Below are positions 1-44,586 of a stretch of DNA of 64,000 nucleotides, in pieces. The position numbers and the translations under genes are program-made. The stretch spans positions 704,001 through 768,000 of the forward strand of contig CBDDEL010000016.1 in NCBI GenBank assembly GCA_965226885.1, given 5' to 3'. Every line of letters starts with the position of its first letter. Position 1 is the stretch's first letter. Origin of the DNA: Opitutales bacterium (GTDB lineage: Bacteria > Verrucomicrobiota > Verrucomicrobiia > Opitutales > UBA2987). The notes under the pieces were generated by a model. It had not been told where the DNA came from and made no database searches. It worked only from the letters and a program-made list of their open reading frames with translations.

Positions 1-222
1 TGACCAACGGCAATTTTTCCGTAGGACTGGGGGATATATCTCTGTCGGGCATGCCCGAGTCGATTCCGCCGGATATCTTTGCCGATAACGACGATATATT
101 CCTACGGGTTTGGTTCAGCCCGACAACGAGTGCCTTTCAGCAGCTTCTACCGGATTTAAGGATCGCCTCCGAAGGCTTCGACTTCGCCGCAGCCAGGGCA
201 ATAGAGGCTGATTTCGCCCTAG

Positions 223-17756: not shown

Positions 17757-18266
17757 TCAATTAATTGCATCCTCCAGATCATCATCTTTAAAACTTAAAA
17801 ATATAAGGGAAGTGCCCATCATTGCAAACATGCGAAAAGCGGCATCCTGGCCATTCCAATCTTCCGATTGCCACATTAAAAACCATTCTCCACCCACCGT
17901 AATGAAGGCCACATACCATTGCAGCAAGATTACAGTTAGCCCGATGGTGGCAATCTTTTTCGCTCTATTGAAAGCGGCCCCACTGCCCTTCAGGAATCGG
18001 GCCAATACGACCGTGCCCCAAACACACAATACCAAGGCGATGGTTTCCCACAAAATGATGGACCCGTAAAAAAGGGTGTGGATTTGGGGGGAATCGATAG
18101 CCCGCCACATCAGCTGATTGTCCTCGAAAGCAGTGGACATGGAGAGAACACCCTCGACGAAGAGGTAGTTCGACCTGTAATCGGTCAGATTGTTGAGGAC
18201 TACAAATGCCAGAAACAAGGCGGTGGCCGCCACCAGGGAAATTTTACAGAGACGTATGGCCAACAT
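17757..18266 (-). CDS. DUF2165-like membrane protein
   Basis: NNLTDY.SN..FV..VLSM and GGEWFLMWQS..WNGQ motifs. Confidence 0.85.
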   Translation of the reverse strand: MLAIRLCKISLVAATALFLAFVVLNNLTDYRSNYLFVEGVLSMSTAFEDNQLMWRAIDSPQIHTLFYGSIILWETIALVLCVWGTVVLARFLKGSGAAFNRAKKIATIGLTVILLQWYVAFITVGGEWFLMWQSEDWNGQDAAFRMFAMMGTSLIFLSFKDDDLEDAIN

Positions 18267-18443
18267 GAATCGAGAATGTAAACAGGAAAAAGCGGTCATG
18301 CCAAGAAGCTTTTGCGCCGCTTGCAAATTGCTTTTGTTGTCTATGCGGCTCCTTGACAATGCTTTGCCGATGGTGCTGGATAGGAAATCACCACCTCGCC
18401 AACCCGGCGGTTGGTATTTGCCCTCAAACCTTTTCTAACCGTC

Positions 18444-26013: not shown

Positions 26014-26065
26014 ATCGAACTTCATTCAATTCATTTCAGTTAATTTAAGAAAATAATCGAAAAAA

Positions 26066-26644: not shown

Positions 26645-26680
26645 TCGTTCAACCACACCTCTATCCAGGATCCAACTGCC

Positions 26681-27025
26681 ATGAACGAAGAACACGCACA
26701 TCCAAATTATATCAAGATATGGGCCATCCTGACGTTTCTGCTTTTTGTCAGCATTGTCGGGCCCATGATCGGAATCCCGGCTTTGACCCTCATCACGGCA
26801 TTCGGCATCGCGTTGGTCAAAGCGGTCATGGTGGGGGCCTATTTCATGCACTTGAACATCGAAAAACGCTTTGTATGGTACATGTTGTTCACCGCGTTGC
26901 TTTTTCTGGGCTTATTCTTCTTCGGCGTTTCCCCCGATGTGATGAAATCCGACGGCACCAACTGGGTCAATCAAACAACGGCTGCCGTATCTGTCGAGGC
27001 GGGCGATGCCGGTTCGCATCACTAA
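26681..27025 (+). CDS. Cytochrome c oxidase subunit IV family protein
   Basis: Three TM helices, KA..V..YFMHL motif. Confidence 0.88.
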   Translation: MNEEHAHPNYIKIWAILTFLLFVSIVGPMIGIPALTLITAFGIALVKAVMVGAYFMHLNIEKRFVWYMLFTALLFLGLFFFGVSPDVMKSDGTNWVNQTTAAVSVEAGDAGSHH

Positions 27026-27114
27026 ACAGCAGGCAGTTGCCGGGGCGTTATTGCTTCTCGGTAAAAAAGTATAAGGATTGAAGATCGAGGGTTGGATTTT
27101 TGGAAACTGCAATA

Positions 27115-27972: not shown

Positions 27973-29280
27973 TCAATCCAGTTCTGAAAAATCGGGCATC
28001 TCCGGCTGCCGGAAATTTTCTCCTGAAATCAATTGCCTGGGAACATAGGGTCGGGACAGCAGTTCATTGAAACTGCGCGCCGGGAAAACCACCAATTCAG
28101 CCATTTTCTGCGGTTCAATCGTACCATATTGGCGCAATCCCATATATTCAGCCGGAGTTGCCGTGACCAGGCGAGGTGTATGCTCCAGATGCGGCTCCAG
28201 TTGGCCAATACGGATGGATTGCACCAAAACCTCGAACATATCGTAGTCTCCATAGGCAAAATAGCCGTCCCGCACATTATCGCTGGCGCAAGCAATGGGA
28301 ATGGCGCTGTCAAGCATTTCGTGGTACAGAGTGATGCCACGCCACATGGGTGTAAAGGTAGCGGACCCTTGCGCACCCGGAGCCTTTGTTTTGCGGTCCT
28401 GCAGGAACAGGTTGCACATGGGAAGGGTAATAATTTTGATTCCCGCCGATTTAACGAGATTGAGGGTTTCGGCCTGCCTGGCCGGTTCCTGCAATGCCAG
28501 GCTGGAGCAGTGCCCGCAGAAAACGGGATTAGGGAAATTATTGCGAAAAACGGCCTCGGCCGTTTTTCGCAGGCATTCATTGGAGGGGTCGTTGTTTTCG
28601 TCCACATGGAGGTCCAGCCCCACCCCGATGTCCCCGACGAGGGCCATTAAACGGTCGAGGCTGCGATCCAAATCAGGATTCATGTGCGGCATAGTTCCGA
28701 GAAAATCCGCCCCCATATCGACCAGTTTCTCCGCCCGTTTTCTTCCTTGCTGGGCCGTAAAAAAGTCGATACCGGTCAAGGCAACCGCTTGCAGGGTAAT
28801 CCGCCCCGCCCACTCAGTCTGCAAACGATTGTAAACGGCAAAAACCATCTCGGAAACCTGTTCACTGGCATCGAGGTGGGTACGCATGGCCGCAGTGCCA
28901 TTCCCCCATGCGCACTTTAAGGAAAAATCGCCCCGTAAATAGAGGTCTTCTTCATCCCAGACTGCCTTGTCCGAATGAAAACATTCACCCGCCTCCTGGA
29001 AATTGCCACTTCGGTTGGGAGCCCGATTCCAGGTGTAGGTTTTGTCGAGATGAGTGTGGACGTCAATAAAAGCGGGTAATACCATACGGCCTTTAAGATC
29101 GATTCTTTTCCATTGTCCGACCAATCGACCCGGCGGGGCAACCGCTGTGATGGTATTTCCGGTAACCGCTATGTCGCACAAAGCGGCAGGGTCGAACCAT
29201 AGTTTTTCGCCCTCGCAGGCATCGGCAAAAGTCTCCGGCAGCAGGCAAACAGGGACTTTGGCGTTCTCGTATATTGTCAT
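27973..29280 (-). CDS. Cytosine/pterin deaminase-like amidohydrolase
   Basis: DVHTHLDK, HVDE, HCSS and SDN metal-binding motifs. Confidence 0.9.
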   Translation of the reverse strand: MTIYENAKVPVCLLPETFADACEGEKLWFDPAALCDIAVTGNTITAVAPPGRLVGQWKRIDLKGRMVLPAFIDVHTHLDKTYTWNRAPNRSGNFQEAGECFHSDKAVWDEEDLYLRGDFSLKCAWGNGTAAMRTHLDASEQVSEMVFAVYNRLQTEWAGRITLQAVALTGIDFFTAQQGRKRAEKLVDMGADFLGTMPHMNPDLDRSLDRLMALVGDIGVGLDLHVDENNDPSNECLRKTAEAVFRNNFPNPVFCGHCSSLALQEPARQAETLNLVKSAGIKIITLPMCNLFLQDRKTKAPGAQGSATFTPMWRGITLYHEMLDSAIPIACASDNVRDGYFAYGDYDMFEVLVQSIRIGQLEPHLEHTPRLVTATPAEYMGLRQYGTIEPQKMAELVVFPARSFNELLSRPYVPRQLISGENFRQPEMPDFSELD

Positions 29281-29311
29281 AGTACCGTTTGCAAAAATCC
29301 TGAATACCGGA

Positions 29312-31641
29312 TTATGGATTTGCGCTGAAATCCAGAAGTTGATCCAGGTTTGCCGGCTCGGCGAGAATCCCTGCCTTCAGCAATATGTTCTGGCTAGCTT
29401 TCCATTTATCGGCGCGCATGATGGCCAGGGGCGGCAGCCCATCGGGACTGACCAATTCGGCGATCCGGCGCAAGGAGGCGGTCTGGTATTCCCGATCCAG
29501 ATGAGGAGAATATTCCGCAATCACCAGATCGGCCGTTTCCTCCACATGATCGATGAAATGGACGGGGAAAACTGGACAGTGGAATAAGGTGGTCTTGAAC
29601 CACTAAATCCGCTAACCTATGAATGTTATTAAATCACGAAAGAGAAGACAATACAGTGCTGAGTTTAAAGCCCGAGTGGCCCTGGAAGCCATCAGGGGCG
29701 CTCATACCATCAACGAGATCGCCGGTCGTTTTGAGGTGCATCCCAACCAGGTGACCCAATGGAAGAAGCAGCTTTTGCAGGGAGCAACGGAGCTGTTTTC
29801 GCGCCAGCGGCAGACTCTCAGCAAGGACAACGAGACGGAAAAAGATCACCTTTACCAGGAGATTGGAAAGCTGAAAGTAGAATGCGATTGGCTAAAAAAA
29901 AAGTCTGAACAATTCGGTTGGTGAGAGGCGCAAGATGGTGCAACCACTTCAAGGAAAAATCAGTATCGGCAGGCAATGTCAGTTGCTGGGGCTGGCCCGC
30001 GGCAGCTATTACTATCGGGCCCGTGCCCAGTGCGAGCAGAACGTTCTCTACATGCATCGCATGGATGAGCTCTACACCCAATATCCGTTTTTTGGTTCTC
30101 GCCGGATGACCCAGTGGCTGCGTCGAGAGGGCCATGCAGTGGGACGAGGCCGCATCCAGCGGCTCATGCGCCAAATGGGCCTGGAGGCTATTTATCCGCG
30201 TCGAAACTTGAGCCAGGGGCACCGGCAGCACCGCATTTTCCCTTATCTGCTGCGGGGTTTGGCGGTCGAGCGGCCCGACCAGGTATGGTGCAGCGACATC
30301 ACTTACCTGCGGCTGAGCCGAGGATTCCTTTTCTTGACCGTGGTGTTGGACTGGTTCAGCCGCTACGTGTTGAGCTGGCAGCTTTCCAACACCCTGGAGA
30401 GCCGCTTCTGTGTGCTCGCCCTGGAGGAAGCTCTGAGGCGGGCCCAACCTCAAATCTTCAACACCGATCAAGGCAGCCAGTTTACCGGCAGCGAGTTCAC
30501 CTCGGTGCTGGGGCAAGCCGGGGTGCGCATCAGCATGGACGGGCGTGGCCGCTACCTGGACAACATATTTGTTGAACGCTTTTGGAGAACCCTCAAGTAT
30601 GAAGACATTTACCTGCGCGAATACGCCACGGCAAAGGAAGCCAGCGAAGGGATAGCCCGCTACCTGGACTTCTACAACCACCTGCGCCCCCACCAAGCCC
30701 TGGGCTACCGGACCCCGGCCGAAGTCCATGCAATCGGAGCAAAACCAACCTCCCCGCCAATACAGCTTGCGGGCACCTGCGTGCCCGTCTTTGGCTAAGG
30801 ACAAAATATATTTTTAAAAAATAATATGAACACGATTTCCACCTTAATCCCACGTCAAAATTGTCCAAACAACCCCGTCCACTTCACGAGGGCATATTTC
30901 CATCCTTCTCTGCTCGCCCGTAAAAATCTCTTAACCAAATCGTGGTTCTGTGCCATCATTTTTTCGGTTGTGAAAATGACCTGGGAATAGGCATGGTATC
31001 CGTAATCGCGGGCCAAAATGATCTTGCTGGTTCCACCCGTCAGCAATTGCAGGTGGACGAACTCGTCCATGTAATAGCACTGCATGAGATCGACTTTACC
31101 CTCGACTAAAATGGCGGGATCCCAGCCAATTTCAATGGTTTCAATATGATCGTGACTCAAGCCGGCTCCATTCAGAACCAAGTCCAGAGCGACGGCTTCG
31201 ATGGTGGCATGGATGCCAATCTTTTTACCTTTAAAATCGGCCGGCGACTGAATTGCAGCAGAATGCAAAGACATCCAGCCCAGAGGAGAATCCTGGAACA
31301 TGGCGGCGATGGCTTTAATACCGGATTCGGTCACGCCTGCTTGCAGCAGGAAGGAGCTTTCAATCACACCGAATATATAGTCGGCTTTCTCATTGAGAAC
31401 GATGTCAACCGGAGTTCGTCCCTCGATCAGCGCCCGGATTTCCACCTCCATGCCTGCATCGGCATAAAAACCATGTTCTACGGCTTGATACATTCCTGCA
31501 AACTGGACATTCGGCACCCAATCGAGCTGCAATACAATGGGAATAAGGGGTTTTTCGGCTATTTGGCATTTGGCTATAGGTGGGAATTATCAAACCTGCG
31601 ATTAGAAAAACGTATAGGACTGTCAGCTTGGTTTTTGTCAT
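29312..31641 (-). pseudogene. NMT1/THI5-type ABC substrate-binding protein, IS3-interrupted and frameshifted
   Basis: LQLDWVPNVQFAG motif; WKYAL|DHVEETA rejoins across the CGA TSD; 7-bp duplication at 31561-31574. Confidence 0.88.
29554..30886 (+). mobile_element. IS3-family element (orfA 29619-29924, orfB to 30798)
   Basis: TG...CA IRs (TGAAATGGACGGGG / CCCCGTCCACTTCA); 3-bp TSD CGA; WCSDITY, NTDQGSQF and ERFWRTLKYE integrase core. Confidence 0.95.
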
Positions 31642-31805
31642 AAAGCGTTACATCAAGAAAAGAGTTTTTCCCGAAGTGGCAACCCCAGAATTTTCAGTCC
31701 GGGACAACTGAGGTTGTATTTTCAATTCAAATGAACGACGACGCAGAGCCCGATATTTTTTATTAATTCTTGGATTCCGAAGCCTCATCTGATTCAATAG
31801 AAGAT

Positions 31806-33212
31806 ATGAAATCGGCTTCCCGTTTTATGAAAATTCCACAAAGGACGGTATCGCAATTCAAGGCAATCGTGGGCCAATCCAATGTGCTGACCGAACCGGA
31901 GGCGGTGGAAAAGCTGTCCAAGGATTTTTTTTGGTATTCTCCTAAATTGAAAAGAGAGCTCAATGACAAGCGGGCGGATGTCGTTTTGAAAATCGCCCAT
32001 CGGGAAAGCCTGCAAAAGATAATTTCAATCTGTTGCGACGGGCAAATCCCCGTCACCATAAGGGGCGGCGGGACCGGCAATTACGGCCAATGTATTCCGC
32101 TATACGGGGGTGTCGTTCTCGATCTGGGGGGCATGGACCGTATTGTATCGATAAAGGATGGAGTGGCCAGGGTAGAACCGGGGGTGCGGCTGGTAACGAT
32201 CGAAACCGAGGGGCGTAAACTTGGCTGGGAGCTGCGCTGCATGCCTTCTACCTTTGTCAAAAGCAGTGTTGCCGGTTTTCTCTGCGGCGGCTCCGCCGGA
32301 ATCGGTTCGGTCACCTGGGGAGGGATCAACAACGACGACAATATAAAATCGATCACCTTAATGACGATCGAGGAAAAGCCGCGCCTCCTGAAGTTCAGGG
32401 AGCGCGAATGCATGACATCCCTGCACACTTACGGAACGACCGGGATTCTGGTAGAGGCCGAGATCCGGCTGGCTCCCAAAGTGCCTTACGACCAGCACAT
32501 CTTTATCGATTCCGATTGGGACAAATTACTCGACTGGGCCGATTCCATAGCTCAAAACCCGGCCATCCGCAAAAGGCTGGTGACGCAGTTTGAATGGCCC
32601 ATCCCTTCCTATTTTCTGCCCCTGCGGCGATTCCTGCAAGAAGGCTTTCATTGCGTTTTTCTGTTGGTCGACAGGGAGCAAAGCGATGAAGTCAAGAAAA
32701 GCGCCGAAAACATGGGCATTCGCCACACCCATACCATCGAATACAGGGAGCCATTGCGCCCCCCCTATCTGACGGACTACACCTGGAACCACACCACCCT
32801 CTGGGCCATTAAAAAAGACAGCAAACTGACCTACAGCCAATTGAATCTGGGGGAAAATTTTCGAGGAAAAATCCGTTGCCTGTGGAATCGATTTCCGGGA
32901 GAGATCATGATGCACCTGGAATGGATTAAGGGAATCCCCAAGTCTCAAAACACATATAGCGGCATCTTTTGCGGGTGCATGCCCCTGATCCGATTCCGAT
33001 CCGATGAGCGCCTGCGGGAAATTTCCCGTTACTGCCGTGAAATCGGGATTTTCGAGGCCAATCCGCATACTTTTTATCTGGAAGACGGCGCCGCCCATCC
33101 AGATATTGAAACCAAGCGGCAGCTCAAAACGGAAACGGATCCACTCGGCATTCTTAACCCCGGCAAAATGAGGACCTATCAAACCAATCCCTTCGAACCA
33201 ACTCCTGTCTGA
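31806..33212 (+). CDS. FAD-binding (PCMH/GlcD-like) oxidoreductase 1
   Basis: RGGGTGNYGQCIP..GG and DPLGILNPGK; start codon uncertain. Confidence 0.9.
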   Translation: MKSASRFMKIPQRTVSQFKAIVGQSNVLTEPEAVEKLSKDFFWYSPKLKRELNDKRADVVLKIAHRESLQKIISICCDGQIPVTIRGGGTGNYGQCIPLYGGVVLDLGGMDRIVSIKDGVARVEPGVRLVTIETEGRKLGWELRCMPSTFVKSSVAGFLCGGSAGIGSVTWGGINNDDNIKSITLMTIEEKPRLLKFRERECMTSLHTYGTTGILVEAEIRLAPKVPYDQHIFIDSDWDKLLDWADSIAQNPAIRKRLVTQFEWPIPSYFLPLRRFLQEGFHCVFLLVDREQSDEVKKSAENMGIRHTHTIEYREPLRPPYLTDYTWNHTTLWAIKKDSKLTYSQLNLGENFRGKIRCLWNRFPGEIMMHLEWIKGIPKSQNTYSGIFCGCMPLIRFRSDERLREISRYCREIGIFEANPHTFYLEDGAAHPDIETKRQLKTETDPLGILNPGKMRTYQTNPFEPTPV

Positions 33213-33229
33213 AACCAATTTTTCTGAGA

Positions 33230-34639
33230 ATGTTTAAAAATATGCCTGTTTCCATCAACGAAAACGTATTGACTGCATTTCGTGATGCGGCGGGGGAAAA
33301 TAATCTCCTCTCCCGGGTGGAAGATATAGAAAAGATTTCCAAGGATTTTTACTGGTATTCTCCCATTCTGCACCGGCAACTGAAGGACAAGAGAGCCAAC
33401 CTCGGCATCCGCATAAGCGACCTGGGTACGTTGAAAAAAGTAATCTCCCTATGCTGCCAAAATAAAATACCCCTGCAAGTGAGGGGAGCCGGCACGGGAA
33501 ACTATGGGCAATTGATTCCTCTACACGGCGGGGTCGTTCTCGATCTTGCGGGCTTAAACCGCTTGATCTCCCTCGACGTCGAAAATGGGGTGGTCCGGGC
33601 CGAGCCAGGTGCGCGGCTGGGCACGATTGAAACAGAAGCCCTCAAAACCGGCTGGGAATTGCGTTGCATGCCTTCGACCTGGGTCAAAAGCTCGCTCGGC
33701 GGATTCCTTTGCGGCGGGTCGGCCGGGATCGGGTCCATTACTTACGGCGGGCTAGATAACAAGGACAACATCAAGTCGGTCTCCCTCCTGACCATTGAAG
33801 AGGAGCCCCGGCTGCTCTGTTTCGAGGAACGGGAATGCATCAAAGCGCTGCACACTTACGGAAGCACCGGCATATTGGTGGAGGCGCAGATGCGTTTGGG
33901 CAAGAAAGTGCCCTACGAGCAGCATATCTTCATTTCCAAGGATTGGAACCAACTGACGGAGTGGGCCTTCAAGGTGGCCTGCGACAATACTTTGCGCAAA
34001 CGCGAGATCGCCCAATTCGAGTGGCCCATGCCTTCTTTTTTCCTGCCCTTGCGTAAATATGTTCCCGTTGGTTGCCACTGCATGTTCCTGCTGGTGGACG
34101 AGGCGCAGTCGCAACAAGTGATTAACGACGCCGCTCAATCGGGCATTGATCACACCCACAAACTGTTGTTTCGAGAACCCCCGCGACCTCCCTATCTGAC
34201 GGATTATACCTGGAATCACACTACTCTGTGGGCCATTAAAAAGGACTCGTCGTTCACCTATCTGCAATTGGGTATGGCGGAAAATTTCGCCGAACAATTG
34301 GAAATCCTGACTAGAAAATATCCCGGCGAAATCTTGCACCATCTGGAATTCACCAAAGGTTACACCAAAATGCGGGCGGTCGATTATGAAATCCTCTGTT
34401 TCGACCTCCCCCTGGTAAAATACAAGAATGAAACCCGCCTGCATGAAATGATGGATTTTTGCCAAGAAATTGGCATATCCTGCGCCAATCCGCATTCCTA
34501 TTTCCTGGAAGAAGGCGGCGGGCACGAAGATATGGATGAGAAACGCCAACTGAAAAAAATCACCGACCCCTTGGGCATCCTCAATCCCGGCAAAATGAAA
34601 TCCTACCCAACCAATCCCTTTTTAACAACCGGCTCATAG
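33230..34639 (+). CDS. FAD-binding oxidoreductase 2
   Basis: RGAGTGNYGQLIP and DPLGILNPGK; paralog of both neighbours. Confidence 0.9.
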   Translation: MFKNMPVSINENVLTAFRDAAGENNLLSRVEDIEKISKDFYWYSPILHRQLKDKRANLGIRISDLGTLKKVISLCCQNKIPLQVRGAGTGNYGQLIPLHGGVVLDLAGLNRLISLDVENGVVRAEPGARLGTIETEALKTGWELRCMPSTWVKSSLGGFLCGGSAGIGSITYGGLDNKDNIKSVSLLTIEEEPRLLCFEERECIKALHTYGSTGILVEAQMRLGKKVPYEQHIFISKDWNQLTEWAFKVACDNTLRKREIAQFEWPMPSFFLPLRKYVPVGCHCMFLLVDEAQSQQVINDAAQSGIDHTHKLLFREPPRPPYLTDYTWNHTTLWAIKKDSSFTYLQLGMAENFAEQLEILTRKYPGEILHHLEFTKGYTKMRAVDYEILCFDLPLVKYKNETRLHEMMDFCQEIGISCANPHSYFLEEGGGHEDMDEKRQLKKITDPLGILNPGKMKSYPTNPFLTTGS

Positions 34640-34668
34640 CCAAATTGTTCATTATTCGGACTATCTTT

Positions 34669-36057
34669 ATGGCAAATGCAAAATGTTTACTTCCAGAAAT
34701 CGACGATCGGATGATTTCCAGTTTTCAATCAGTGGTGGGGGAGGAAAATGTTCTCACCGATCATGATAGCGTGGAGAAATTATCCAAAGATTTTTATTGG
34801 TATTCCCCTATTCTGAAAAAACAACTGAAAGACAAACAGGCCGATATCGCCGTAAAAATCAGCGCTCTGGAGGAGTTGCAGGCGGCTGTTTCCATCTGCG
34901 CCAAAAATCGCCTCCCCATCACCCTGCGAGGCGGCGGCACCGGCAATTACGGCCAGTGTATCCCGCTCTACCGGGGGGTGGTGATCGATATCACAAACAT
35001 GAACCGGATTCTTTCCCTGGACAGAGGCGTGGCCAGGGTGGAGCCCGGCGCCCGGCTCTTTACCATTGAAACCGAGGCCCGCAAACTGGGTTGGGAAATG
35101 CGCTGCATGCCAACCACATTTGTCAAAAGCACCATGGGCGGATTTCTCTGCGGCGGTTCCGGGGGCATCGGTTCCATCACCCACGGCATGATCCGCACCG
35201 GGGACAACATGAAATCCGTCACCTTCATGTCGGCGGAGGAGAAACCGCGAATTCGCAAATTCGAGGAAGAGGAAGTTTTGACCACTTTGCACACCTACGG
35301 CACCAACGGCATTCTGGTAGAAGCGGAAATGCGCTTGGCCCCTCAAGTAATTTACGACCAGATGATTTTCGTCTCTCGCGATTGGGAGCGCCTTCTCAAT
35401 TGGACCGATGGAATCGCCCGCGACGAGGCCATCCACAAGCGGCTGGTGTCGATGTTCGAGTGGCCTGTGCCGGTAAATTTCCTGTCCCTGAAAAAATACC
35501 TGCCAGAAGGCTATCACGTCGTTTTCCTGACCGCCAAACAGGAGCAGTGCGCCGATCTCATTGTGGACGCCGAAAAGAACGGCATCGACCACACCCGCAC
35601 CATACCCCATACGGATCCCATGAGACCGCCTTACCTGAGCGATTTCACATGGAACCACACCACCCTGTGGGCCATGAAAAAGGATCCCACTATGACTAAT
35701 TACCAAGTGAGGTTCGGGCCGAATTTTCAGGAACAGATCCGGCTGCTGTGGAAAAAGTTTCCCGGCGAAATTCAAATGCACCTGGAATGGATCAAGGCGG
35801 ACGACGAACCGTTCCTCATCAGCCTTCCCCTCATTAAGTTTTCAACCGAGGAACGTCTGCAAGAAATGGCCAACTACTTCACGGAAATCGGGATAACTAC
35901 GGCGAACCCACACACTTATATTCTGGAGGAAGGCGGCATGCATCCTGACATCGAGAAAAAACGGGCTCTGAAAAAGGAAATGGACCCGCATGGCATTCTT
36001 AATCCGGGTAAAATGGCCACCTACCCCCACAACCCTTTTGCCAAAGCCATGGCCTGA
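34669..36057 (+). CDS. FAD-binding oxidoreductase 3
   Basis: RGGGTGNYGQCIP and DPHGILNPGK. Confidence 0.9.
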   Translation: MANAKCLLPEIDDRMISSFQSVVGEENVLTDHDSVEKLSKDFYWYSPILKKQLKDKQADIAVKISALEELQAAVSICAKNRLPITLRGGGTGNYGQCIPLYRGVVIDITNMNRILSLDRGVARVEPGARLFTIETEARKLGWEMRCMPTTFVKSTMGGFLCGGSGGIGSITHGMIRTGDNMKSVTFMSAEEKPRIRKFEEEEVLTTLHTYGTNGILVEAEMRLAPQVIYDQMIFVSRDWERLLNWTDGIARDEAIHKRLVSMFEWPVPVNFLSLKKYLPEGYHVVFLTAKQEQCADLIVDAEKNGIDHTRTIPHTDPMRPPYLSDFTWNHTTLWAMKKDPTMTNYQVRFGPNFQEQIRLLWKKFPGEIQMHLEWIKADDEPFLISLPLIKFSTEERLQEMANYFTEIGITTANPHTYILEEGGMHPDIEKKRALKKEMDPHGILNPGKMATYPHNPFAKAMA

Positions 36058-36098
36058 AAGTGGATTGATGCCCGCGCAAACCGTAAAACTTTAGCATT

Positions 36099-37814
36099 GT
36101 GATCGGCAAAGGACTGGAAAATGCATTTACCGGCGTCGACTTAATAGCGGGGGTCAAGGCCGAGATGCGGGACGGCACCCGGTTGGCAGCGGATATTTAC
36201 CAGCCAACGGCCGATGGAACCTATCCGGTTTTGCTGATGCGCATCCCCTACGGACGGGAGGTCGCTTCCACCCCCACTCTTGCCCACCCCGTTTATTTCG
36301 CCCGCCAGGGGTATATCGTGGTCATTCAGGATGTGCGTGGTCGAGGCGATTCGGAAGGGACGTTCGATCCCTTTCGTCAGGAAGTGAATGATGGCTACGA
36401 CTCCGTCATGTGGGCTTCGGAACTGGAAAAAGCGAGCGGCCAGGTGGGCATGTATGGATTTTCCTACATGGGTTTCACGCAATTGCTGGCGGCGTCGGCC
36501 CGGCCTCCCACGTTGCAGGCCATCGCTCCCATGATGACTGCCTTTGACTGGTATTCGGGGTGGTTCTACCGGGACGGTATATTGCAAGCGTCCAGCGCCC
36601 TTTACTGGATCAGCCAGATGCTCCGGGATGACGCCAAGCGCGCAAAATTGCCCGATTTTATGGATTACGATGATTGCTGGATGCATTTCGGGCGGCTTTG
36701 CTATGAAATGCCGTTGGTGCGGGCCGACCCGATTACCCGGCCCGAAGCGCCCACCTATGGCCGGGAATGGCTGGAACACAGCCGTTACGACGCCTATTGG
36801 AAGGAATTCGACCTCCTTGGCCGGATCGACGAATTGGATGTGCCCATATTTCATGGGTCGGGCTGGTACGATTTTTTCCTGCGGGGCAGCTATGATGGAT
36901 ACAAGGCCATGACGGCCGGGAAATCCGCCCACCGCGAAAACCAATTCATGCTGACCGGCCCCTGGACGCACATGCCGTGGGGTGACACCTTGGGAGACGA
37001 GAACTTTGGACCCGAGGGGAAAATCGATGTATCCGCCCTCCTCGTCCAATGGTTCGATTACTGGCTGAAAGGAATTGAGCCGAAAGACAAACTGCAAGGA
37101 ACGCGGTATTTTATCATGGGGGCAAACCAATGGCGCTCCTCACCCACCTGGCCCCCGCCCGAATCGCAACCGGTGGATTATTTTTTGCATTCACAAGGCT
37201 GCGCCAATTCCCGGTTCGGCGATGGAACCCTGGAGATAGAGCCGGGCACGGGAGTGGAAAATCTTTTCGTCTATGAGCCCGATTATCCAGTGCTGGCTCC
37301 CGGAGGCAATCAAAGCGGGGCGACTTTAGCGGGTCCATTCGACCAATCAGAGGCCCAGCAATACAACAACCTGCTGGTTTATACAACGAAGACCCTACAG
37401 GAAAACATTGTCGTGGTAGGACGTCCTGCCTGCCGTCTTTATGTCCGCAGTTCGGCTCCGGAAACCGATTTCGTGGTCAAGCTGACCCGCGTAACCCAAG
37501 ACGGAAAAGCCCTTTTCCTGACCCTGGGAGCCATTCGCCTCAGCCGGGGAATATGTGACGATAGTGGAGTAACCCAATTGAATATCGAGATGGACGACAC
37601 GGCCTGCCAATTTCAAAAGGGCGAGCGCATCCGCATCGATGTGGCTAGTTCAGCTTTTCCATTGATGATCCGCAACCCGAATACGGGGCTTTCACCGGAA
37701 AGGGTCTCCTCGCCGGCCGAATTTCAACGGGCCATGCAGGTGGTTTACAACGATGCCGAATACCCTTCCAAAGTGATCCTTCCGGTTATGGTTGAGGAAA
37801 ATGGAAACACTTAG
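36099..37814 (+). CDS. CocE/NonD-family serine hydrolase
   Basis: MRDGTRLAADIY, QDVRGRGDSEG, GFSYMG nucleophile, GPWTH. Confidence 0.92.
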   Translation: MIGKGLENAFTGVDLIAGVKAEMRDGTRLAADIYQPTADGTYPVLLMRIPYGREVASTPTLAHPVYFARQGYIVVIQDVRGRGDSEGTFDPFRQEVNDGYDSVMWASELEKASGQVGMYGFSYMGFTQLLAASARPPTLQAIAPMMTAFDWYSGWFYRDGILQASSALYWISQMLRDDAKRAKLPDFMDYDDCWMHFGRLCYEMPLVRADPITRPEAPTYGREWLEHSRYDAYWKEFDLLGRIDELDVPIFHGSGWYDFFLRGSYDGYKAMTAGKSAHRENQFMLTGPWTHMPWGDTLGDENFGPEGKIDVSALLVQWFDYWLKGIEPKDKLQGTRYFIMGANQWRSSPTWPPPESQPVDYFLHSQGCANSRFGDGTLEIEPGTGVENLFVYEPDYPVLAPGGNQSGATLAGPFDQSEAQQYNNLLVYTTKTLQENIVVVGRPACRLYVRSSAPETDFVVKLTRVTQDGKALFLTLGAIRLSRGICDDSGVTQLNIEMDDTACQFQKGERIRIDVASSAFPLMIRNPNTGLSPERVSSPAEFQRAMQVVYNDAEYPSKVILPVMVEENGNT

Positions 37815-37862
37815 CGGTTGCCCTCGCGCGACAAAAAACCAAACTTTTTTTCGTTCACCGAA

Positions 37863-38633
37863 ATGGAGAATGCAAACGATACCCCACTGGTTCGCCTAAA
37901 GAACCTCCATAAGCGCTTCGGCGAGGGCGACACCGTTCTTGAGAACATCGATTTGGAGGCATCGGGGACGGATTTTATCGGTCTGATCGGTCCCAGCGGC
38001 TGCGGAAAATCAACCCTTCTCAAATTGATTTCGGGATTGACTCCGGTGACGGGTGGAAAGCTGGAAGTTAATGGCGGGAGCCCTGCCGCCGCCCGCGACC
38101 GGATGTCATACATCTTCCAGGATGCCACCCTCCTGCCCTGGCTAACCGTTCATAAAAACATTCAAACGACCATGCGCCTGCACGGGATCAACAAGAATGA
38201 ATGCATCCGCGTGGCCGATAAGATGGCGGCCATGGTGGGATTGGAAAAGGTCGTCAATTATTATCCCCGGCAGCTATCGGGGGGGATGCAAATGCGGGTC
38301 TCCATAGCCCGGGCCTTGAGTGTGTCGCCGCAAATCCTCCTTCTAGACGAGCCCTTTGGAGCCCTTGATGAAATGACGCGGGACCACCTCAACGAGGAGC
38401 TTTTAAGAATACGCTCGATGGAGTCATGGACGGCCTTTTTTGTCACCCATTCGGTGGCCGAAGCGGTCTTCCTGTCCACCGAAATAATCGTTTTAACCGC
38501 CAATCCGGGAACCATTTATAAAAAAATTGCCGTCGATTTCCCCTACCCTCGCACCGCTGAAACAAGAGAATCGCCCGAGTTTCAACGCCTGGTGGGGGAA
38601 GTTTCTCATCACTTGCGCTCGGTTGAACGGTAA
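37863..38633 (+). CDS. NitT/TauT-type ABC transporter ATPase
   Basis: GPSGCGKST, LSGGMQMR, LLLDEPFGALD. Confidence 0.95.
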   Translation: MENANDTPLVRLKNLHKRFGEGDTVLENIDLEASGTDFIGLIGPSGCGKSTLLKLISGLTPVTGGKLEVNGGSPAAARDRMSYIFQDATLLPWLTVHKNIQTTMRLHGINKNECIRVADKMAAMVGLEKVVNYYPRQLSGGMQMRVSIARALSVSPQILLLDEPFGALDEMTRDHLNEELLRIRSMESWTAFFVTHSVAEAVFLSTEIIVLTANPGTIYKKIAVDFPYPRTAETRESPEFQRLVGEVSHHLRSVER

Positions 38634-38654: not shown

Positions 38655-39437
38655 ATGAAAAAGCATTTAGTGTGGATTTTGCCGACCATTACGGGATCCG
38701 TCATCATCGGGATTTGGTATTTTATCATTGTCGTTGGCGGCCAGCCGGACTACGTGCTGCCGTCTCCCTGGCAAATCCTGGAGGCCTGCGTCAATGAGCG
38801 GCATTTGCTGGTTCCGGCGGCTCTGAGGACAGGATTCGCGGCCATCGTCGGGTTTGTCACTGCAGTAGCCGGCGGCAGCCTTATCGGCCTCATCCTGGCC
38901 TCCTCGCGTTGGGTAAAAATGTCGTTTTACCCCTGGGTGCTGGTCATGCAAATGACGCCGCTGATCGTCATCGTGCCTATCTTTGTCCTCTGGTTTGGGG
39001 AAGGGCTGCCCAGCATAACGGCCATTACGTTCGGCATCTGTTTTTTCCCGGTGGTGGCCAATACGACGATGGGCCTCGTCTCCACCGATAAGAATTTGCT
39101 CGATTTATTCAAGATGAGCAACGCCTCCTTTACCCAGGAATTTTTTCTCCTGCGGGCTCCATATGCCCTCCCCTATTTTTTAACCGGAGTAAAGATCGCC
39201 GGTACCTTGGCACCCATTGGCGCCATAACGGGTGACTTTCTGGCGGGAACGGCCTCCACCTATGCCGGTTTGGGTTATCTGGTGCAAAACTACCGCAGCC
39301 AGATTATGACGGCGGAGCTTTTCGCGGTAGCCTTCGTCGGCTGCCTGATCGGGTTCATCTTCGTGTCGGCCGTAAATTTCGTCCATTGGTACTTGCTCCA
39401 CAACTGGCATGAATCCTCCCTTAAAGCCGAACATTAG
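38655..39437 (+). CDS. NitT/TauT-type ABC permease
   Basis: LPSP motif, about six TM helices, PYALPY..TG. Confidence 0.93.
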   Translation: MKKHLVWILPTITGSVIIGIWYFIIVVGGQPDYVLPSPWQILEACVNERHLLVPAALRTGFAAIVGFVTAVAGGSLIGLILASSRWVKMSFYPWVLVMQMTPLIVIVPIFVLWFGEGLPSITAITFGICFFPVVANTTMGLVSTDKNLLDLFKMSNASFTQEFFLLRAPYALPYFLTGVKIAGTLAPIGAITGDFLAGTASTYAGLGYLVQNYRSQIMTAELFAVAFVGCLIGFIFVSAVNFVHWYLLHNWHESSLKAEH

Positions 39438-40467
39438 AAGATTCCCACTTTGGGTCTTTTGCATTCTGTTTAGCTGTCTGAGTCTCCATTTTTCAGGCTG
39501 CCGGCAAAATCCACGGGCTACCTCTACCCAGGAGGGCCGAATCCTGCATAAGGTTATCATGCAAACCGATTGGTATGCTCAGCCAGAGCACGGCGGTTTC
39601 TACAATGCGCTTATTAAGGGATATTATGAAGAAAATGGTTTGGATGTGGAAATTCGGCAAGGGGGCCCGTCCTCGGTGGGGACGGAGAGGGTGGCCACGG
39701 GCAAAGTCCACTTCAGCCTCAGCTCGACCGATCAAATTAGAATTTTCGTGGAACATGGGCTGCCTCTAATAGTGGTTTACGCTTATATGCAGCGGAGCCC
39801 ACAGGCAATCCTTCTGCATGAGGACAATCCGGTCAACACCTGGAAGGACCTGGATGGTAAGGAAATCATGGCGGCGCCGGGCGCTTCATGGACCTATTTG
39901 CTGCAAAATAAATACGATATTCAGTTTGGCATAATCCCCCTCGATATGGGGATGGGCAGATTCTTGATGGACAAAAATTTCATCCAACAGTGTTTTGTCA
40001 CCAACGAGCCTTATTTTATTCAACAAAAAGGAGTGAAATCGAAAACCATGCTCTTCGCCGATTCTGGTTTCAATCCCTACCGGGTGGTTTTTACGGACCA
40101 AAAGTTTGCCCGCGAATTCCCTGAATTAGTGAGCGCTTTCGTGGCCGCCTCCATGCAGGGCTGGCTCGACTATGTGGAGAACGCTCCGGCCGAAACCAAT
40201 GCTGAGCTTTTACGCCTCAACCCTGCCAATACTCCAGAATTTGTTGAATTTGCCATCAATGCCATGCGGGACTACCAACTAGTCTCCGGCAATCCCGAAG
40301 TGGGAGAATTTCATGCCAGGGTATCTCCTAGGCGGATACAAAGAAATATGCGCGACATGGTGGAAATTGGAGTCATCAAAAAAACGCTCCCGATGGCAGC
40401 CTATCTTTCTAACGAATTTCTTCCAGCGGAGACGCAAAAAGCCATCGCCCGGGCCGAGACCGAATAA
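39409..40467 (+). CDS. NMT1-like ABC substrate-binding (lipo)protein
   Basis: QTDWYAQPEHGGFY, QGGP, TNEP; FSGC lipobox-like. Confidence 0.9.
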   Translation: MNPPLKPNIRRFPLWVFCILFSCLSLHFSGCRQNPRATSTQEGRILHKVIMQTDWYAQPEHGGFYNALIKGYYEENGLDVEIRQGGPSSVGTERVATGKVHFSLSSTDQIRIFVEHGLPLIVVYAYMQRSPQAILLHEDNPVNTWKDLDGKEIMAAPGASWTYLLQNKYDIQFGIIPLDMGMGRFLMDKNFIQQCFVTNEPYFIQQKGVKSKTMLFADSGFNPYRVVFTDQKFAREFPELVSAFVAASMQGWLDYVENAPAETNAELLRLNPANTPEFVEFAINAMRDYQLVSGNPEVGEFHARVSPRRIQRNMRDMVEIGVIKKTLPMAAYLSNEFLPAETQKAIARAETE

Positions 40468-40484: not shown

Positions 40485-41525
40485 ATGAACGTAATTAGAA
40501 GAAAAAAGAAATTCCTTTTGGGACTGGTTTTATTACTGGCCGTTATGATTGTAGCGGGCTGCAAGAAAAAACATCACGCCACCGTCCTGAAAGATGGCAA
40601 GGAGCTAACCAAAATCATTCTGCAAACCGATTGGTACGCGCAGGCCGAGCACGGCGGTTTCTACAATGCCCTCTACAAGGGTTTTTATGAAAAGGCCGGT
40701 CTGGAGGTGGAAATTCACCAGGGCGGACCTAATTCCCTGGGGCCGGAACGCGTGGCCACGGGCAAGGCGCATTTTTCAATCACCCGGAGCGTCGAGATAA
40801 TGCTCTACGCTTCCCAAGGCATCCCGCTTATCATTGTTACGGCCTACATGCAGCGCGATCCGCAGGCACTTTTGCTCCATGCAGAAAACCCAGTCAAGAC
40901 CTGGAAAGACCTCGATGGCAAAATCATCATGAGCACTCCCGGAGTCTCCTGGACGATCTATCTGCAAAAGCAATTCGACATTGAGTTCCAAACCATAGCC
41001 GTGGATTACGGACTGGGGCGCTTTTTGACGGACAAGGATTTCATCCAGCAATGCTTCATCACCAACGAGCCTTATTATATGTCGGAAAAGGGCGTTGCGG
41101 TGAAAACCATGCTCATCGCGGATTCGGGTTTCAGCCCTTACAGGGTGGTTTACACCAATCGGAACTTTGCCCGTGAAAACCCAGATGCTGTGCGAGCTTT
41201 CGTAGCCGCCACCATCGACGGCTGGCGCGATTTCATTGAAAACGCACCGGACGAAACCCTACGCAAAATTTCCGAAATCAACCCCCAGATGAAGAGGGAT
41301 TTTATGGCCTATGGCATCAAGGCAATGAGGGAAAACGAACTTGTTGCGGGAAAAGCGGAAAAGGGGGAGCAATCGGGCTTGATCCTTCCCCTTCGCCTGC
41401 AAAAGCAGTTCGAGGAGCTGTTGAACCTGGGTGTAATTAAAAATCGCATTCCGGCTTCCGACTATATGTCGATCGACTACCTGCCCGAGGAACTGAAAAC
41501 GATCGCCCGGCAAAATCAGGATTGA
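40485..41525 (+). CDS. NMT1-like ABC substrate-binding lipoprotein
   Basis: VAGC lipobox; QTDWYAQAEHGGFY. Confidence 0.9.
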   Translation: MNVIRRKKKFLLGLVLLLAVMIVAGCKKKHHATVLKDGKELTKIILQTDWYAQAEHGGFYNALYKGFYEKAGLEVEIHQGGPNSLGPERVATGKAHFSITRSVEIMLYASQGIPLIIVTAYMQRDPQALLLHAENPVKTWKDLDGKIIMSTPGVSWTIYLQKQFDIEFQTIAVDYGLGRFLTDKDFIQQCFITNEPYYMSEKGVAVKTMLIADSGFSPYRVVYTNRNFARENPDAVRAFVAATIDGWRDFIENAPDETLRKISEINPQMKRDFMAYGIKAMRENELVAGKAEKGEQSGLILPLRLQKQFEELLNLGVIKNRIPASDYMSIDYLPEELKTIARQNQD

Positions 41526-43348
41526 TGCGATTATCGACTTTACTGAAATTCCGGTACCAGAAGGCCGCGGGTAGTATTTTTTCTGTTTTACTCTTACTTT
41601 GGGCCGTATGGGGGACCGGTTGCGGTAAAATTGAGAACTCTTCCGGCCAATCGCAGGAACAGCCGCTGGAGAAGATCATCCTTCAAACCGAATGGTATGC
41701 GGAACCCGAGCATGGCGGATTTTACTACGCTTTAGTCGAAGGCTACTACCAAGAAGCCGGCCTGGATGTGGAAATCCGCCAGGGTGGCCCCAATGCCCTT
41801 GCCCCCGAAAAAGTGGCCACCGGCAAAGCCGATTTCGCTCTCTCTCGCAGCGATGAAGCCATTATCTACGCGGCCCGGAATTTGCCCGTCCGGGTCGTCA
41901 TGGCCTCAATGCAGAGAGACGCCCAGGCTCTTCTTTTGCACGAAGAAAACCCTGTTGAAACCTTCTCCGATTTAAACGGCAAAACCATCATGGCCACACC
42001 TGGCGCATCCTGGATCAAGATTTTGAAAAATCGCTACGGAATCGAATTCGATACCATTCCGAACGATTACGGCATGGGCCGGTTCCTGACCGACAAATCC
42101 TTTATCCAGATGTGTTTTGTGACCAACGAGCCTTATTATGCGCGGCTCCGCGGAGCCCACCCAAAGACCCTGCTCCTAGCGGATTCCGGCTATAACCCTT
42201 ATCGGTCGGTATTAACCAATCACAAATTCGCCCAGGAGCATCCCGATCTGGTTCGCGCCTTCGTGTCGGCCTCCATTCGTGGTTGGCGAAACTACATGGC
42301 GGGGAACCGATCGCGCACCAACACTCACATCGCCTCATTGAATCCACAGATGACCGAGGAGTTCATGGAATTCATCCTCGACACAATTGAAGATTACAAG
42401 CTGGTCCAAGGCTATAAGGAACAGGGAGAAAGGCTGGGATTGGTCACCGCAAAACGGATGCAAGAGCAAATGGACGCGCTGCTTGAGAACGGCATCCTGA
42501 AAAAAGCATTACCTTTGGATTCTTTTTTTACCAACGAATTCCTGCCCGATGAACTGCGCGATTGGCAGAAAGTGGGTTCGCCCCCGGCAATTGCCCTGGC
42601 CGACGAGCGGCATTCGCCGGACGATTTGAGGATCAGAGGGCCAATCCGGGGCTTCGAGCCGTATCAACCCCTTTATATCAGCTACGAGGATCTTTTAAAA
42701 ATGCCGACCGAAACAATTGTCACCGACATTGTCTGGCTTGGCCAGGACCGCCAGACAACCGTCCTCGATCTCGAAACGCTGCGGGAATCCCTCGGCATTG
42801 AGGAGTTAACGGATTTCGTTCTGGCCGATTGCCGGGATGGCTATGAGGCCAATTTCGATGCCAAAGTATTAATAGAAAACAAGCCTTTCCTAGTCCTGCA
42901 AATCGATGGTTTTCCGCCTAAAAGAGGAGGCCGGGGTATGGGCGGTAATTTGTATTACCTGAATCTGAAAAATGAAAACGGAATACTTAACCCGGAACAT
43001 AAAAAACCCTTCGGAGTAACCGGCCTTGAATTCACCCGCCGCCAATTCAAATTGGAAGAACTCTACCGGGGCACTCTTACCGACCTGTCCCCACAGGCCG
43101 CCCGGGGGCGGGAAATTTATGTGGGAAGCTGCCTTAGCTGCCACCGGCCCCTCTCCGGCCAGTTCGGCGGAACACTCTCCAATCGCAACCTTGAGGCGAT
43201 CGCCGCACAGGCAAAATACAACCGGCAATATTTTCTCAACTGGGTGCGGGACCCGCAGGATTTAATTGAAGGCGTGGCCATGAGCCCCCATCCTTATCCC
43301 GAGGAAATGATGAACCAACTAATCGCTTTTCTGGAAAATATCCCCTGA
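41525..43348 (+). CDS. Fusion: NMT1-like binding protein + Moco-oxidoreductase-fold-like domain + cytochrome c
   Basis: Residues ~45-350 paralogous to the adjacent SBPs; then LRIRG..SYEDLLKMP..DGY..IDG.P; C-terminal CLSCH heme motif and Met. Confidence 0.8.
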   Translation: MRLSTLLKFRYQKAAGSIFSVLLLLWAVWGTGCGKIENSSGQSQEQPLEKIILQTEWYAEPEHGGFYYALVEGYYQEAGLDVEIRQGGPNALAPEKVATGKADFALSRSDEAIIYAARNLPVRVVMASMQRDAQALLLHEENPVETFSDLNGKTIMATPGASWIKILKNRYGIEFDTIPNDYGMGRFLTDKSFIQMCFVTNEPYYARLRGAHPKTLLLADSGYNPYRSVLTNHKFAQEHPDLVRAFVSASIRGWRNYMAGNRSRTNTHIASLNPQMTEEFMEFILDTIEDYKLVQGYKEQGERLGLVTAKRMQEQMDALLENGILKKALPLDSFFTNEFLPDELRDWQKVGSPPAIALADERHSPDDLRIRGPIRGFEPYQPLYISYEDLLKMPTETIVTDIVWLGQDRQTTVLDLETLRESLGIEELTDFVLADCRDGYEANFDAKVLIENKPFLVLQIDGFPPKRGGRGMGGNLYYLNLKNENGILNPEHKKPFGVTGLEFTRRQFKLEELYRGTLTDLSPQAARGREIYVGSCLSCHRPLSGQFGGTLSNRNLEAIAAQAKYNRQYFLNWVRDPQDLIEGVAMSPHPYPEEMMNQLIAFLENIP

Positions 43349-43371: not shown

Positions 43372-44586
43372 CTAGCGGCCCCGGCGGATGACGGAACCTT
43401 CAAAACTGATGCGGAAGCGGTAACATTGCTTGGTCCTGGTGATAATCTGGAAAGTTTCCCGGTCGATTTTGTCTGGAATCTCATACCGGCGTATGTCCAC
43501 CACAGCGTGATACCCGCGTTCGGAAAAAATGTCGATGAGCATGGCCAGGGCCAGAGAGTGGTCAAAGGTTTTTGATTCCGAATTAATATAGGCCATTCCC
43601 GATATGGCATGTGTTACCACGATGGGCAAAAATTTACTTTGTATCAACCTTACCACCTTCTTGAATAATTCGGTGTGGTTTCGCTCGTATTCGTCCAACC
43701 GCTGGATGAGCTCCTGGCGGGCGTGGATGACGATATTGCTGGCAACTGGAATAGTCTGCAGGCGTTCGTAGGTAGCGCCCTCCAGTTCGAGGGAACTTTG
43801 GTAGCGCAGCTCTTTAACGATGCGGCCCTGAACTTCCCGAATGCTTTCATGGGCATCGATAAAATGGTAGTAAAAAACTTCGCGGAGGGACTTGAGGGCC
43901 TCGTAGGTTATCTCTTTAAACGTGCGGTAACGGTTGCGGGCAGCTTCCTCGTTGAGGTCCGTTTTGCGCAGTTCTATGATATCTCCCATTCCCGAGGTGC
44001 GCACTTGCTCGTTGTGCTCCATGCACATTCGTCCCCGCAGAAGCTGCCGGTCAATGCTCTCCCCCTCATCGATGAAGAGTACCACGATATGGAAGGTGAA
44101 CTTTTTCAGGTTTGTCTTGATACCCTTATCAAGACGGTTGCGCCTAAGTTGTATTACTTTATTGTACAATAGCTTAAGGCACTCCACCTGCACTTTGGTG
44201 CGGGGATAGCCATCGATAACGGCGCCGCTTTTGTATTCGGAGTCGAGCAATTTTTTAAAAACCAGGCGCGTCACCTCGCGGTCTCCCACCATGAGGCCGG
44301 CATCTTTCATCCGCACCGCCTCGGGACTTTTCAGCAATTCGCTGACGATCACCGGATGTGCCGTCATATCCCGAAAATTCATGATAAATTTAGTTTGTGT
44401 GCCCTTCCCTGCTCCGGGGGCTCCATTGAGCCAGAATAATTCGTTGGGAAAACGGATGTTATCTTCCCCGATTTCTTCCAGCAGACTCGCCCACACGGAT
44501 TCAAAAATCAGATGGGCGTCCTTGATCTCGAGATCGCGGGTATTCTTTACGGTAATCTGTTCGCCGATGACAGTTTTATTCGACAT
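43372..44586 (-). CDS. Extended adenylate kinase-like nucleoside monophosphate kinase
   Basis: [10 protein letters not shown] and IDGYPRT motifs, long C-terminal extension. Confidence 0.85.

Follow-up and report, generated by a model that had tools for sequence, protein, structure and literature searches.

An ABC substrate-binding lipoprotein joined to a PruR-like domain and a cytochrome c in an Opitutales bacterium

The fused gene and its substrate-binding domain

The subject of this report is a gene at positions 41525..43348 (+, stop codon included) of a 64,000-nucleotide stretch of DNA from an Opitutales bacterium (contig CBDDEL010000016.1, positions 704,001 to 768,000 of the forward strand), which we call the window and to which the coordinates below refer. 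It encodes a lipoprotein of 607 amino acids (aa) in which an NMT1-type substrate-binding domain of ATP-binding cassette (ABC) transporters, a domain resembling the pterin-binding protein PruR and a cytochrome c follow one another. An earlier account of this DNA made from its letters alone, the sequence-only reading, had proposed one uninterrupted frame holding an NMT1-like binding domain, about 150 aa of another fold and a CLSCH monoheme domain. Our analysis bears out both the frame and the order: a single open frame runs through 41522/41525-43348 (+) with no interruption, and the same three domains recur in the same order in at least 12 homologues. The ATG at 41525 shares one base with the TGA of the preceding binding-protein gene. 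As read from the sequence, the protein begins with a Sec/lipoprotein signal peptide (41525..41623, +) that ends in the lipobox Cys33 and carries no twin-arginine motif; Cys33 is invariant in 13 of 13 aligned fused proteins, and one of 13 fused homologues has the N-terminus MRRR. The whole protein contains five cysteines, at positions 33 (lipobox), 197, 436 (within ADCRDGY), 536 and 539 (both within CLSCH). Pfam and NCBIfam give no match over aa ~340-520.

The three-part fusion is real and not an assembly artefact, because it is found in 12 full-length homologues and because its junction is bridged by contigs from two studies. A homologue search in a collection of 5.8 billion proteins returned 221 matches, 120 of them listed, and yielded at least 12 full-length fused homologues (P0003-P0014) of 576-621 aa, with query cover of 92-100% and identity of 37-77%, some of which are labelled by source as Verrucomicrobiota, including Oceanipulchritudo. 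The alignment of fused proteins (13 rows) keeps all three parts together with C436/D438/Y440, C536/C539/H540 and M586. Logan contigs from three sequencing runs of two studies (X1, X2 and X3; X1 and X2 may represent the source sample) cover 42033-42746 or more with 0-1 differences and with neither gaps nor joints, and contigs of all three runs bridge the junction between the binding domain and the middle domain (~42540-42600). Neither a stop nor an assembly join is present near 42570, where the sequence-only reading had foreseen that one might undo the fusion, and the homologues are not always separate. It might be argued that a sequencing error has joined two genes, since the public gene call P0002 (537 aa) does not match the full frame and the sampled relatives carry the C-terminal part as a separate gene. 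However, the difference from P0002 sits at the start codon only and leaves the junction unaffected, the fused homologues come from different sources, and the contigs of two studies cross the junction gap-free; the chance of such an artefact is negligible. P0002 itself starts about 70 codons later (window 41525-41734) and thereby loses the lipoprotein signal. A second short contig in X2 and in X3 carries 8-9 substitutions and no indels at 42755-42806, within the PruR-like domain, and probably reflects a co-occurring strain.

The binding domain (41666..42538, +) belongs to the NMT1/ThiY type. Pfam NMT1 matches aa 61-258 above the cut-off with an expectation value (E) of 1.2e-35, the closest entries of the PDB are 4nmy_A (E 1e-18) and ThiY 3ix1 (E 2.3e-8), and the domain shares 50-52% identity with SBP1 and SBP2, the binding proteins encoded by the two genes just upstream. 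It shares 46% identity with the binding proteins of the ABC operons of relatives, designated type A, and 23-26% with a second group, type B. The protein thus displays the features of a regular family member, namely a domain above the cut-off, an export signal with lipoprotein anchoring, and an adjacent permease and ATPase. The known ThiY/NMT1-THI5 binding proteins differ in being single-domain proteins, whereas here a redox module is attached at the C-terminus, and we have found no published NMT1/ThiY-type binding protein with such an extension in the literature. A poorly conserved linker (42539..42598, +), delimited by alignment, leads from the binding domain to the module; its residue blocks within 341-360 have a mean predicted local distance difference test score (pLDDT) of 87-89 in the full-length model. 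A simple fusion of neighbouring genes was also considered and rejected: in relatives the module comes first and a type-B binding protein follows, whereas here a type-A domain precedes the module. Because the fused domain is of type A and only 23-26% identical to type B, the gene is not a read-through of those neighbours.

The PruR-like domain, its pocket and the cytochrome c

The middle domain (aa 359-505; 42599..43039, +) has a PruR-type fold, that is, a truncated form of the sulfite oxidase (SUOX) fold, and is not an MsrP-like molybdenum cofactor (Moco) domain. A search of the PDB with the single sequence returned only a faint PruR row (7kp2_A, E 1.3). We then searched 1.84 billion representatives exhaustively with HMMER, taking aa 339-607 as the query, and obtained 143 relatives. 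A profile of 63 of these family members matched PruR of A. tumefaciens (7kos_A, E 1.9e-6) and of V. vulnificus (7kom_A, E 1.3e-5), while a profile of the middle domain by itself matched PruR of V. cholerae (7kp2_A, E 4.7e-5). PruR is the only significant sequence-profile match of this domain. An AlphaFold2 model of the two-domain module from the 63-row alignment reached a pLDDT of 94.2 and a predicted template modelling score (pTM) of 0.91, and the top seven Foldseek hits of this model in the PDB were all PruR, with template modelling scores (target) of 0.72-0.79, followed by YedY, SoxC, SorA and sulfite oxidases. VIA-align gave Z scores of 13.1-14.4 against PruR (129-140 aligned of 134-148 residues, root-mean-square deviation 2.6-3.0 Å), 11-12 against SoxC and plant, chicken and bacterial sulfite oxidases, and 8.6-8.7 against YedY/MsrP. 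The sequence-only reading had suggested a sulfite-oxidase/MsrP-type fold and had named a lack of structural similarity in this region as a reason to abandon the idea. Structural similarity is clearly present, and the assignment to the SUOX family stands, but PruR is a nearer relative than MsrP. The Moco family PF00174 (Oxidored_molyb) has no match in the fused protein at E <= 0.01, sub-threshold matches to it occur in 7 of 36 relatives, and the genome contains a single copy of the middle domain.

The comparison with PruR can be extended to individual residues. According to PMC11194511, PruR is a periplasmic SUOX-fold protein in which the Mo-ligating Cys is replaced by Trp70 and in whose shortened cleft, described as too short for Moco, the pterin ring lies between Tyr104 and Trp160 and is hydrogen-bonded through Asn102. 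In a hidden Markov model (HMM) alignment to V. cholerae PruR, the D-x-Y of our family falls on the N-x-Y of PruR, and the ranges of the structural alignments have the same offset (model 19..166 on 7kou_A 24..168; 12..166 on 7kos_B 21..168). These pocket equivalences rest on the HMM alignment and the alignment ranges, not on superposed coordinates. They place Asp438 and Tyr440 of the motif C436-R-D438-G-Y440 (42830..42844, +) on Asn102 and Tyr104 of PruR, and Phe496 (43010..43012, +), by the structural alignment ranges, at the position expected for Trp160. Asp438 is invariant (63/63), position 440 holds Tyr in 50 members and Trp in a further 11 (61/63 together), and residue 496 is Trp, Phe or Tyr in 37. 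The equivalent of the hairpin that carries the Mo-ligating Cys reads WLGQD, so the domain has no Cys there, and its only Cys is Cys436 in ADCRDGY, as the sequence-only reading had noticed. Since Ser, Ala, Gly or Thr replaces this residue in 10 of 63 members (Cys in 53), Cys436 is probably a small-residue packing position and not a metal or redox ligand.

PruR (A. tumefaciens Atu3496; PDB 7kos/7kou; homologues 7kp2, 7kom and 7rkb), a protein that binds reduced pterins, is therefore the best structural match to our domain, with which it shares a periplasmic location, a Mo-free truncated SUOX fold and a similar size, and its pocket Asn and Tyr sites hold an invariant Asp and a conserved Tyr here. 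Several features nevertheless set the two apart. PruR is a standalone protein of ~170 aa from Proteobacteria, has Pro-Trp at the former Mo-Cys site, carries no heme and is encoded upstream of DcpA-type cyclic di-GMP enzymes, whereas the domain described here is invariably linked to a cytochrome c, has no Pro-Trp motif and carries Asp in place of Asn. The genetic context differs as well: the gene does not stand upstream of a DcpA gene and its neighbours are ABC, deaminase and DUF2165 genes, so that the setting is one of DUF2165 together with catabolic and import functions, to which this gene adds an ABC binding protein.

The third domain (43070..43345, +) is, on the evidence of its sequence, a class I monoheme cytochrome c with His/Met ligation, in which CLSCH occupies 43130-43144 (aa 536-540) and the axial Met586 lies at 43280-43282. 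Pfam Cytochrome_CBB3/Cytochrom_C matches aa 524-605 weakly and below the cut-offs, but the family profile matches caa3 oxidase subunit II (2yev_B) in its cytochrome c domain with E 1.6e-12, the fold has VIA Z scores of 7-8.3 against class I cytochromes c, and C536, C539, H540 and M586 are all invariant (63/63). In the model of the module the cytochrome c appears packed rigidly against the PruR-like domain. The full-length model (75-row alignment; pLDDT 91.9, pTM 0.82) is compatible with a defined arrangement of the three domains and proves no interface. When the binding domain and the module were predicted as a complex, the score was 0.00 in a run without controls, which gives it no weight either way.

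Distribution of the module and its gene neighbourhood

The combination of a PruR-like domain and a cytochrome c is an autonomous and widespread module of which the fusion to a binding protein is a minority variant. Among the 143 representatives, 82 consist of just the middle domain and the cytochrome c (~270-330 aa; many of these have a signal peptide of their own), 10 are fused to a binding domain, 30 have the middle domain only (many of them fragments), 19 the cytochrome only and 2 neither. For a quick maximum-likelihood tree we retained, out of 154 candidates, 81 module sequences with good cover of both domains. All 20 fused rows fall into one clade of 29 rows (SH-aLRT support 91), which also contains 9 unfused rows; no fused row occurs among the remaining 46. 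One unfused row of that clade, P0128, begins in the binding-domain linker and is thus a fragment, while P0122 and P0124 have their own signal peptides. In the Atlas, the nearest clusters bear only the name 'cytochrome c domain-containing protein', and their commonest phyla are Acidobacteriota, Verrucomicrobiota, Nitrospinota and Pseudomonadota. Other fusions of the module exist. In P0163 (425 aa) it is followed by a pterin-4a-carbinolamine dehydratase domain (E 8.8e-22), and a contig titled as an Opitutaceae metagenome-assembled genome (L026) encodes the same fusion at 587-1936 (E 5e-22, 73% identity), after a second, tandem copy of the module and before a SnoaL-like gene. In P0136 the module is fused to a SnoaL-like domain.

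These results qualify the statement of the sequence-only reading that no protein of this architecture had been described. We too have found no description in the literature of the PruR-like and cytochrome c module, of its pairing with DUF2165 or of its fusion to a binding protein, but the C-terminal half is common as a standalone protein. The word 'cytochrome' does not occur in the two PruR papers, nor 'heme' in the PNAS paper, a statement that concerns the articles themselves and not their supplementary datasets, which might list such architectures. The fold and the Mo-free pterin pocket are already known from PruR; no publication that we found describes the permanent coupling to a c-type heme, the partnership with DUF2165 or the joining to an ABC binding protein.

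In the window, the fused gene is the last of an operon that also encodes an ABC ATPase (37818-38633, +), a permease (38655-39437, +) and the two NMT1-type lipoprotein binding proteins SBP1 and SBP2 (39409-40467 and 40485-41525, +). Upstream in the same direction lie three tandem paralogues of FAD_binding_4 oxidases (31770-36057, +), which are cytoplasmic and have no signal peptides, and then a CocE/NonD hydrolase gene, the four genes together occupying 31770..37814 (+). p-Cresol methylhydroxylase is a flavocytochrome in which a cytochrome serves as the acceptor of a flavin-dependent oxidase. Such a role for the cytochrome c next to the neighbouring FAD_binding_4 oxidases was considered and rejected, as all three of them lack a signal peptide.

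On the opposite strand the window contains the parts of what looks like a broken ancestral operon of module, type-B binding protein, deaminase and DUF2165. A truncated type-B NMT1 remnant of 225 aa (30855..31532, -) has no signal peptide and shares 42-43% identity with the module-adjacent binding proteins of two relatives (L019 and L020). An IS3-type integrase gene (29935-30798, on the minus-strand side) adjoins it, followed by an amidohydrolase gene (27973..29280, -) that matches the NCBIfam equivalog PRK07583 'cytosine deaminase' with 460 bits at a cut-off of 403. Within 27973-31770 the site of the standalone module in relatives is an empty gap of 238 bp. It is the signal-less remnant, the integrase beside it and this empty gap that make the operon look broken. 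The gene of the small integral membrane protein DUF2165 (17757..18359, -), the conserved partner of the module elsewhere, comes next, followed by two creatininase-family genes (16159-17717). The deaminase and DUF2165 genes, which are adjacent in relatives, are parted here by an inserted block (18411-27696) comprising a xanthine/uracil permease, a DDE transposase, a diheme cytochrome c and a COX2/COX1/COX3/COX3 operon (22604-27696). The window is rich in transposase and integrase genes (310-6238, 19962-21320, 29935-30798, 46211-47692 and 60770-61738; DDE_Tnp_1_4, ISNCY/IS5-like and IS3), which is consistent with a recent rearrangement of the cluster.

Relatives show what the unbroken arrangement may have been. 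In a phylum sample of 401 genomes (module threshold E 1e-10), the full module occurs in 8 including the source, and in all except the source it is an unfused frame of 279-388 aa. Three of these genomes (G096, G001 and G180) carry the standalone module directly upstream of a type-B NMT1 gene. Two of them, G096 and G001, continue on that strand with a deaminase of the PRK07583 or Amidohydro_3 type, DUF2165 and more amidohydrolase or creatininase genes. Two, G096 and G180, have the module divergent from an operon of FAD oxidase, CocE/NonD, ABC and type-A binding-protein genes, as in the window. In the relative L020, an amidohydrolase gene comes after the creatininase-family genes on the corresponding strand. 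DUF2165 is present in 12 of the 401 genomes, and 7 of these are among the 8 with the module; the genomes are kin, so that these counts are not independent.

A scan of soil metagenomes with a distant clade of the module gave further loci, of which we analysed the best 80 of 460 relatives (L027-L106; 58-92% identity to P0184, mutually related). Within this set, 68 loci have at least 520 nucleotides (nt) of sequence downstream, and in 64 of these DUF2165 follows the module on the same strand at a distance of no more than 300 nt. Of the 64 loci with room upstream, 43 have a RidA/YjgF-like gene no further than 1.5 kb away, and a formamidase/acetamidase-family gene is found in 38 of 80. A Pfam check on 12 of the metagenome loci confirmed DUF2165 in 7 and revealed genes for AtzH-like and DUF3891 proteins, an ABC permease, adenosine deaminase, an amino-acid permease and large TonB-type barrels near the module. 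DUF2165 has ~160 aa and four helices and contains no recognisable output domain, and proteins from two sources share 49-60% identity with the copy in the window. Our literature search found no functional study of DUF2165 but incidental mentions only, as judged from the listing.

The pairing of the module with DUF2165 resembles that of MsrPQ (YedYZ), in which a periplasmic SUOX-fold protein is likewise encoded next to a small membrane protein. MsrP, however, is a Moco enzyme exported by the twin-arginine translocation (Tat) system. MsrQ is a heme-b protein, whereas 11 DUF2165 sequences from two sources have no invariant His, which leaves the idea of DUF2165 as an MsrQ-like heme-b partner unsupported.

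Possible roles of the fused protein

We propose that electrons pass, in the periplasm, between the module and a pterin-like N-heterocycle and that this exchange is coupled to import, a reading to which we give a probability of roughly 45%. The PruR-like pocket would bind a redox-active, pterin-like heterocycle, and the adjacent heme would exchange electrons with the bound ring, probably in the direction of oxidising a reduced (di- or tetrahydro) form, and pass them on to the respiratory chain. In the source lineage, the module would be tethered to a binding protein that hands the ring compound to an ABC importer, after which the compound may undergo deamination and hydrolysis in the cytoplasm. 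What speaks for this proposal is the conservation of Asp438, Tyr/Trp440 and, in part, the aromatic residue 496 on the pterin-contacting positions of PruR, the independent fusions of the module to pterin-4a-carbinolamine dehydratase in P0163 and L026, the position of the module of relatives against an NMT1 gene and a PRK07583 deaminase within a matching catabolic and ABC cluster, and the presence of a cytochrome c oxidase operon in the window. Tetrahydrobiopterin reduces ferricytochrome c non-enzymatically and yields quinonoid dihydrobiopterin, as stated in PMC2789237, so the chemistry of a pterin beside a His/Met c-type heme would favour electron transfer in the oxidising sense. A bolder version, in which a free periplasmic pterin is the redox cofactor beside the heme in a pair reminiscent of nitric-oxide synthase, the module and DUF2165 form a new class of Mo-free oxidoreductases, and the fused form transforms the transporter substrate while it is held on the binding protein, seems distinctly unlikely.

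Some of our results weigh against the proposal. Pocket residue 496 is Thr, Ser or Ala in 22 of 63 members, and the Pro-Trp hairpin motif of PruR is missing from our domain. Among binding proteins of known structure, the closest are ThiY, which binds pyrimidines, and the unnamed entry 4nmy; pterin binders are not among them. Second copies of the module in one genus (L022, L023 and L025) stand beside an unrelated surface protein of 2001 aa. An NMT1 domain is present in 0 of the 80 metagenome loci, where the most constant neighbour of the module is DUF2165 and not a binding protein; the coupling to import is thus specific to the source lineage.

The sequence-only reading had left open whether the protein captures and oxidises its ligand or senses redox state, and either role is inferred; the evidence does not separate the two. 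If the module were a sensor, the PruR-like domain would report a periplasmic pterin-like ligand or its redox state, with the heme as the redox input, and would modulate a partner, the fused binding protein and ABC importer here and DUF2165 elsewhere, while leaving the ligand unchanged. PruR offers a precedent, being described in PMC11194511 as a pterin sensor without catalytic activity whose effect is exerted via the membrane protein of an adjacent gene. The constant position of DUF2165 directly after the module (64/68 loci) and its presence in 7 of the 8 module-bearing genomes fit such a partnership, and the module copy of G332 (locus L024) adjoins a hybrid histidine kinase. DUF2165, however, lacks a recognisable output domain, an invariant covalent His/Met heme is typical of electron carriers, and the neighbours are catabolic and transport genes and not regulators; we therefore regard sensing as unlikely. 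A plainer explanation is that the cytochrome c serves some other periplasmic or membrane step as an electron carrier, with the SUOX-fold domain as a docking or scaffold part that binds no ligand. The heme residues and Asp438 alone are invariant across the 63 members, no family library recognises the middle domain, and the Atlas label speaks of a cytochrome c domain only, all of which this explanation accommodates. It does not account for an invariant Asp and a Tyr or Trp lying exactly on the pterin-contacting positions of PruR or for two independent sequences that fuse the module to pterin-4a-carbinolamine dehydratase, and conservation of a pocket motif across phyla is not what one would expect of a pure scaffold, so that we consider it rather improbable.

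That the protein is a true Moco enzyme of the MsrP or sulfite-dehydrogenase type, with Cys436 as an unconventional Mo ligand, is in our view very improbable. The fold belongs to the SUOX family, and SorAB and SoxCD combine the same fold with a cytochrome c. The genome itself makes Moco, as it encodes MoeA and, elsewhere, two canonical Oxidored_molyb proteins, so a missing pathway would not be the reason for the predicted Mo-free state. On the other side stand the lack of a PF00174 match at E <= 0.01, the WLGQD hairpin, the replacement of Cys436 in 10 of 63 members and the PruR-like size of the domain, given that the cleft of PruR is reported to be too short for Moco (PMC11194511). The export route of the protein argues in the same sense, because its Sec lipoprotein signal has no twin-arginine motif and its c-type heme would have to be attached in the periplasm. 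Moco proteins are exported folded through Tat, while a chain that is to receive c-type heme must still be unfolded once it has reached the periplasm. Accordingly, the Moco and the heme of SorAB and SoxCD sit on separate chains, the Moco subunit taking the Tat route and the cytochrome the Sec route. These enzymes and animal sulfite oxidase resemble our module in pairing a pterin-holding SUOX-fold domain (fold Z 11-12) with a dedicated heme domain or subunit for a one-electron relay, but their Moco bound through a conserved Cys, their dimerisation domain and their Tat export are absent here. We also saw no sign that the protein handles oxyanions such as tungstate or molybdate, since Asp and Tyr are the residues conserved in the pocket and the transporter is of the NMT1 type.

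PruR represents the re-use of the molybdenum cofactor fold for the binding of free pterins in signalling. The fused gene belongs to a second and far wider branch, whose pocket domain is permanently linked to a c-type heme and tied genetically to an uncharacterised membrane protein and to genes for the scavenging of nitrogen heterocycles. If the pocket does bind a pterin-like ring, the module would be the first periplasmic protein built for electron transfer to or from free pterins or related rings, and the form fused to an ABC binding protein would be one of the rare proteins in which redox chemistry and substrate capture are physically coupled. The gene also places DUF2165 and a whole cluster of 'hypothetical' deaminases in a testable context.

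Two further features of the window deserve mention. Downstream of the creatininase-family genes, at 14014-16053 (-), lie open reading frames of 213 and 462 aa with no Pfam match at E <= 1e-4. Immediately after the fused gene and beside lpxK, the region 43372-44586 (-) encodes a protein of 404 aa with an adenylate-kinase-like domain at aa 53-260, well under the NCBIfam cut-offs, together with long extra regions.

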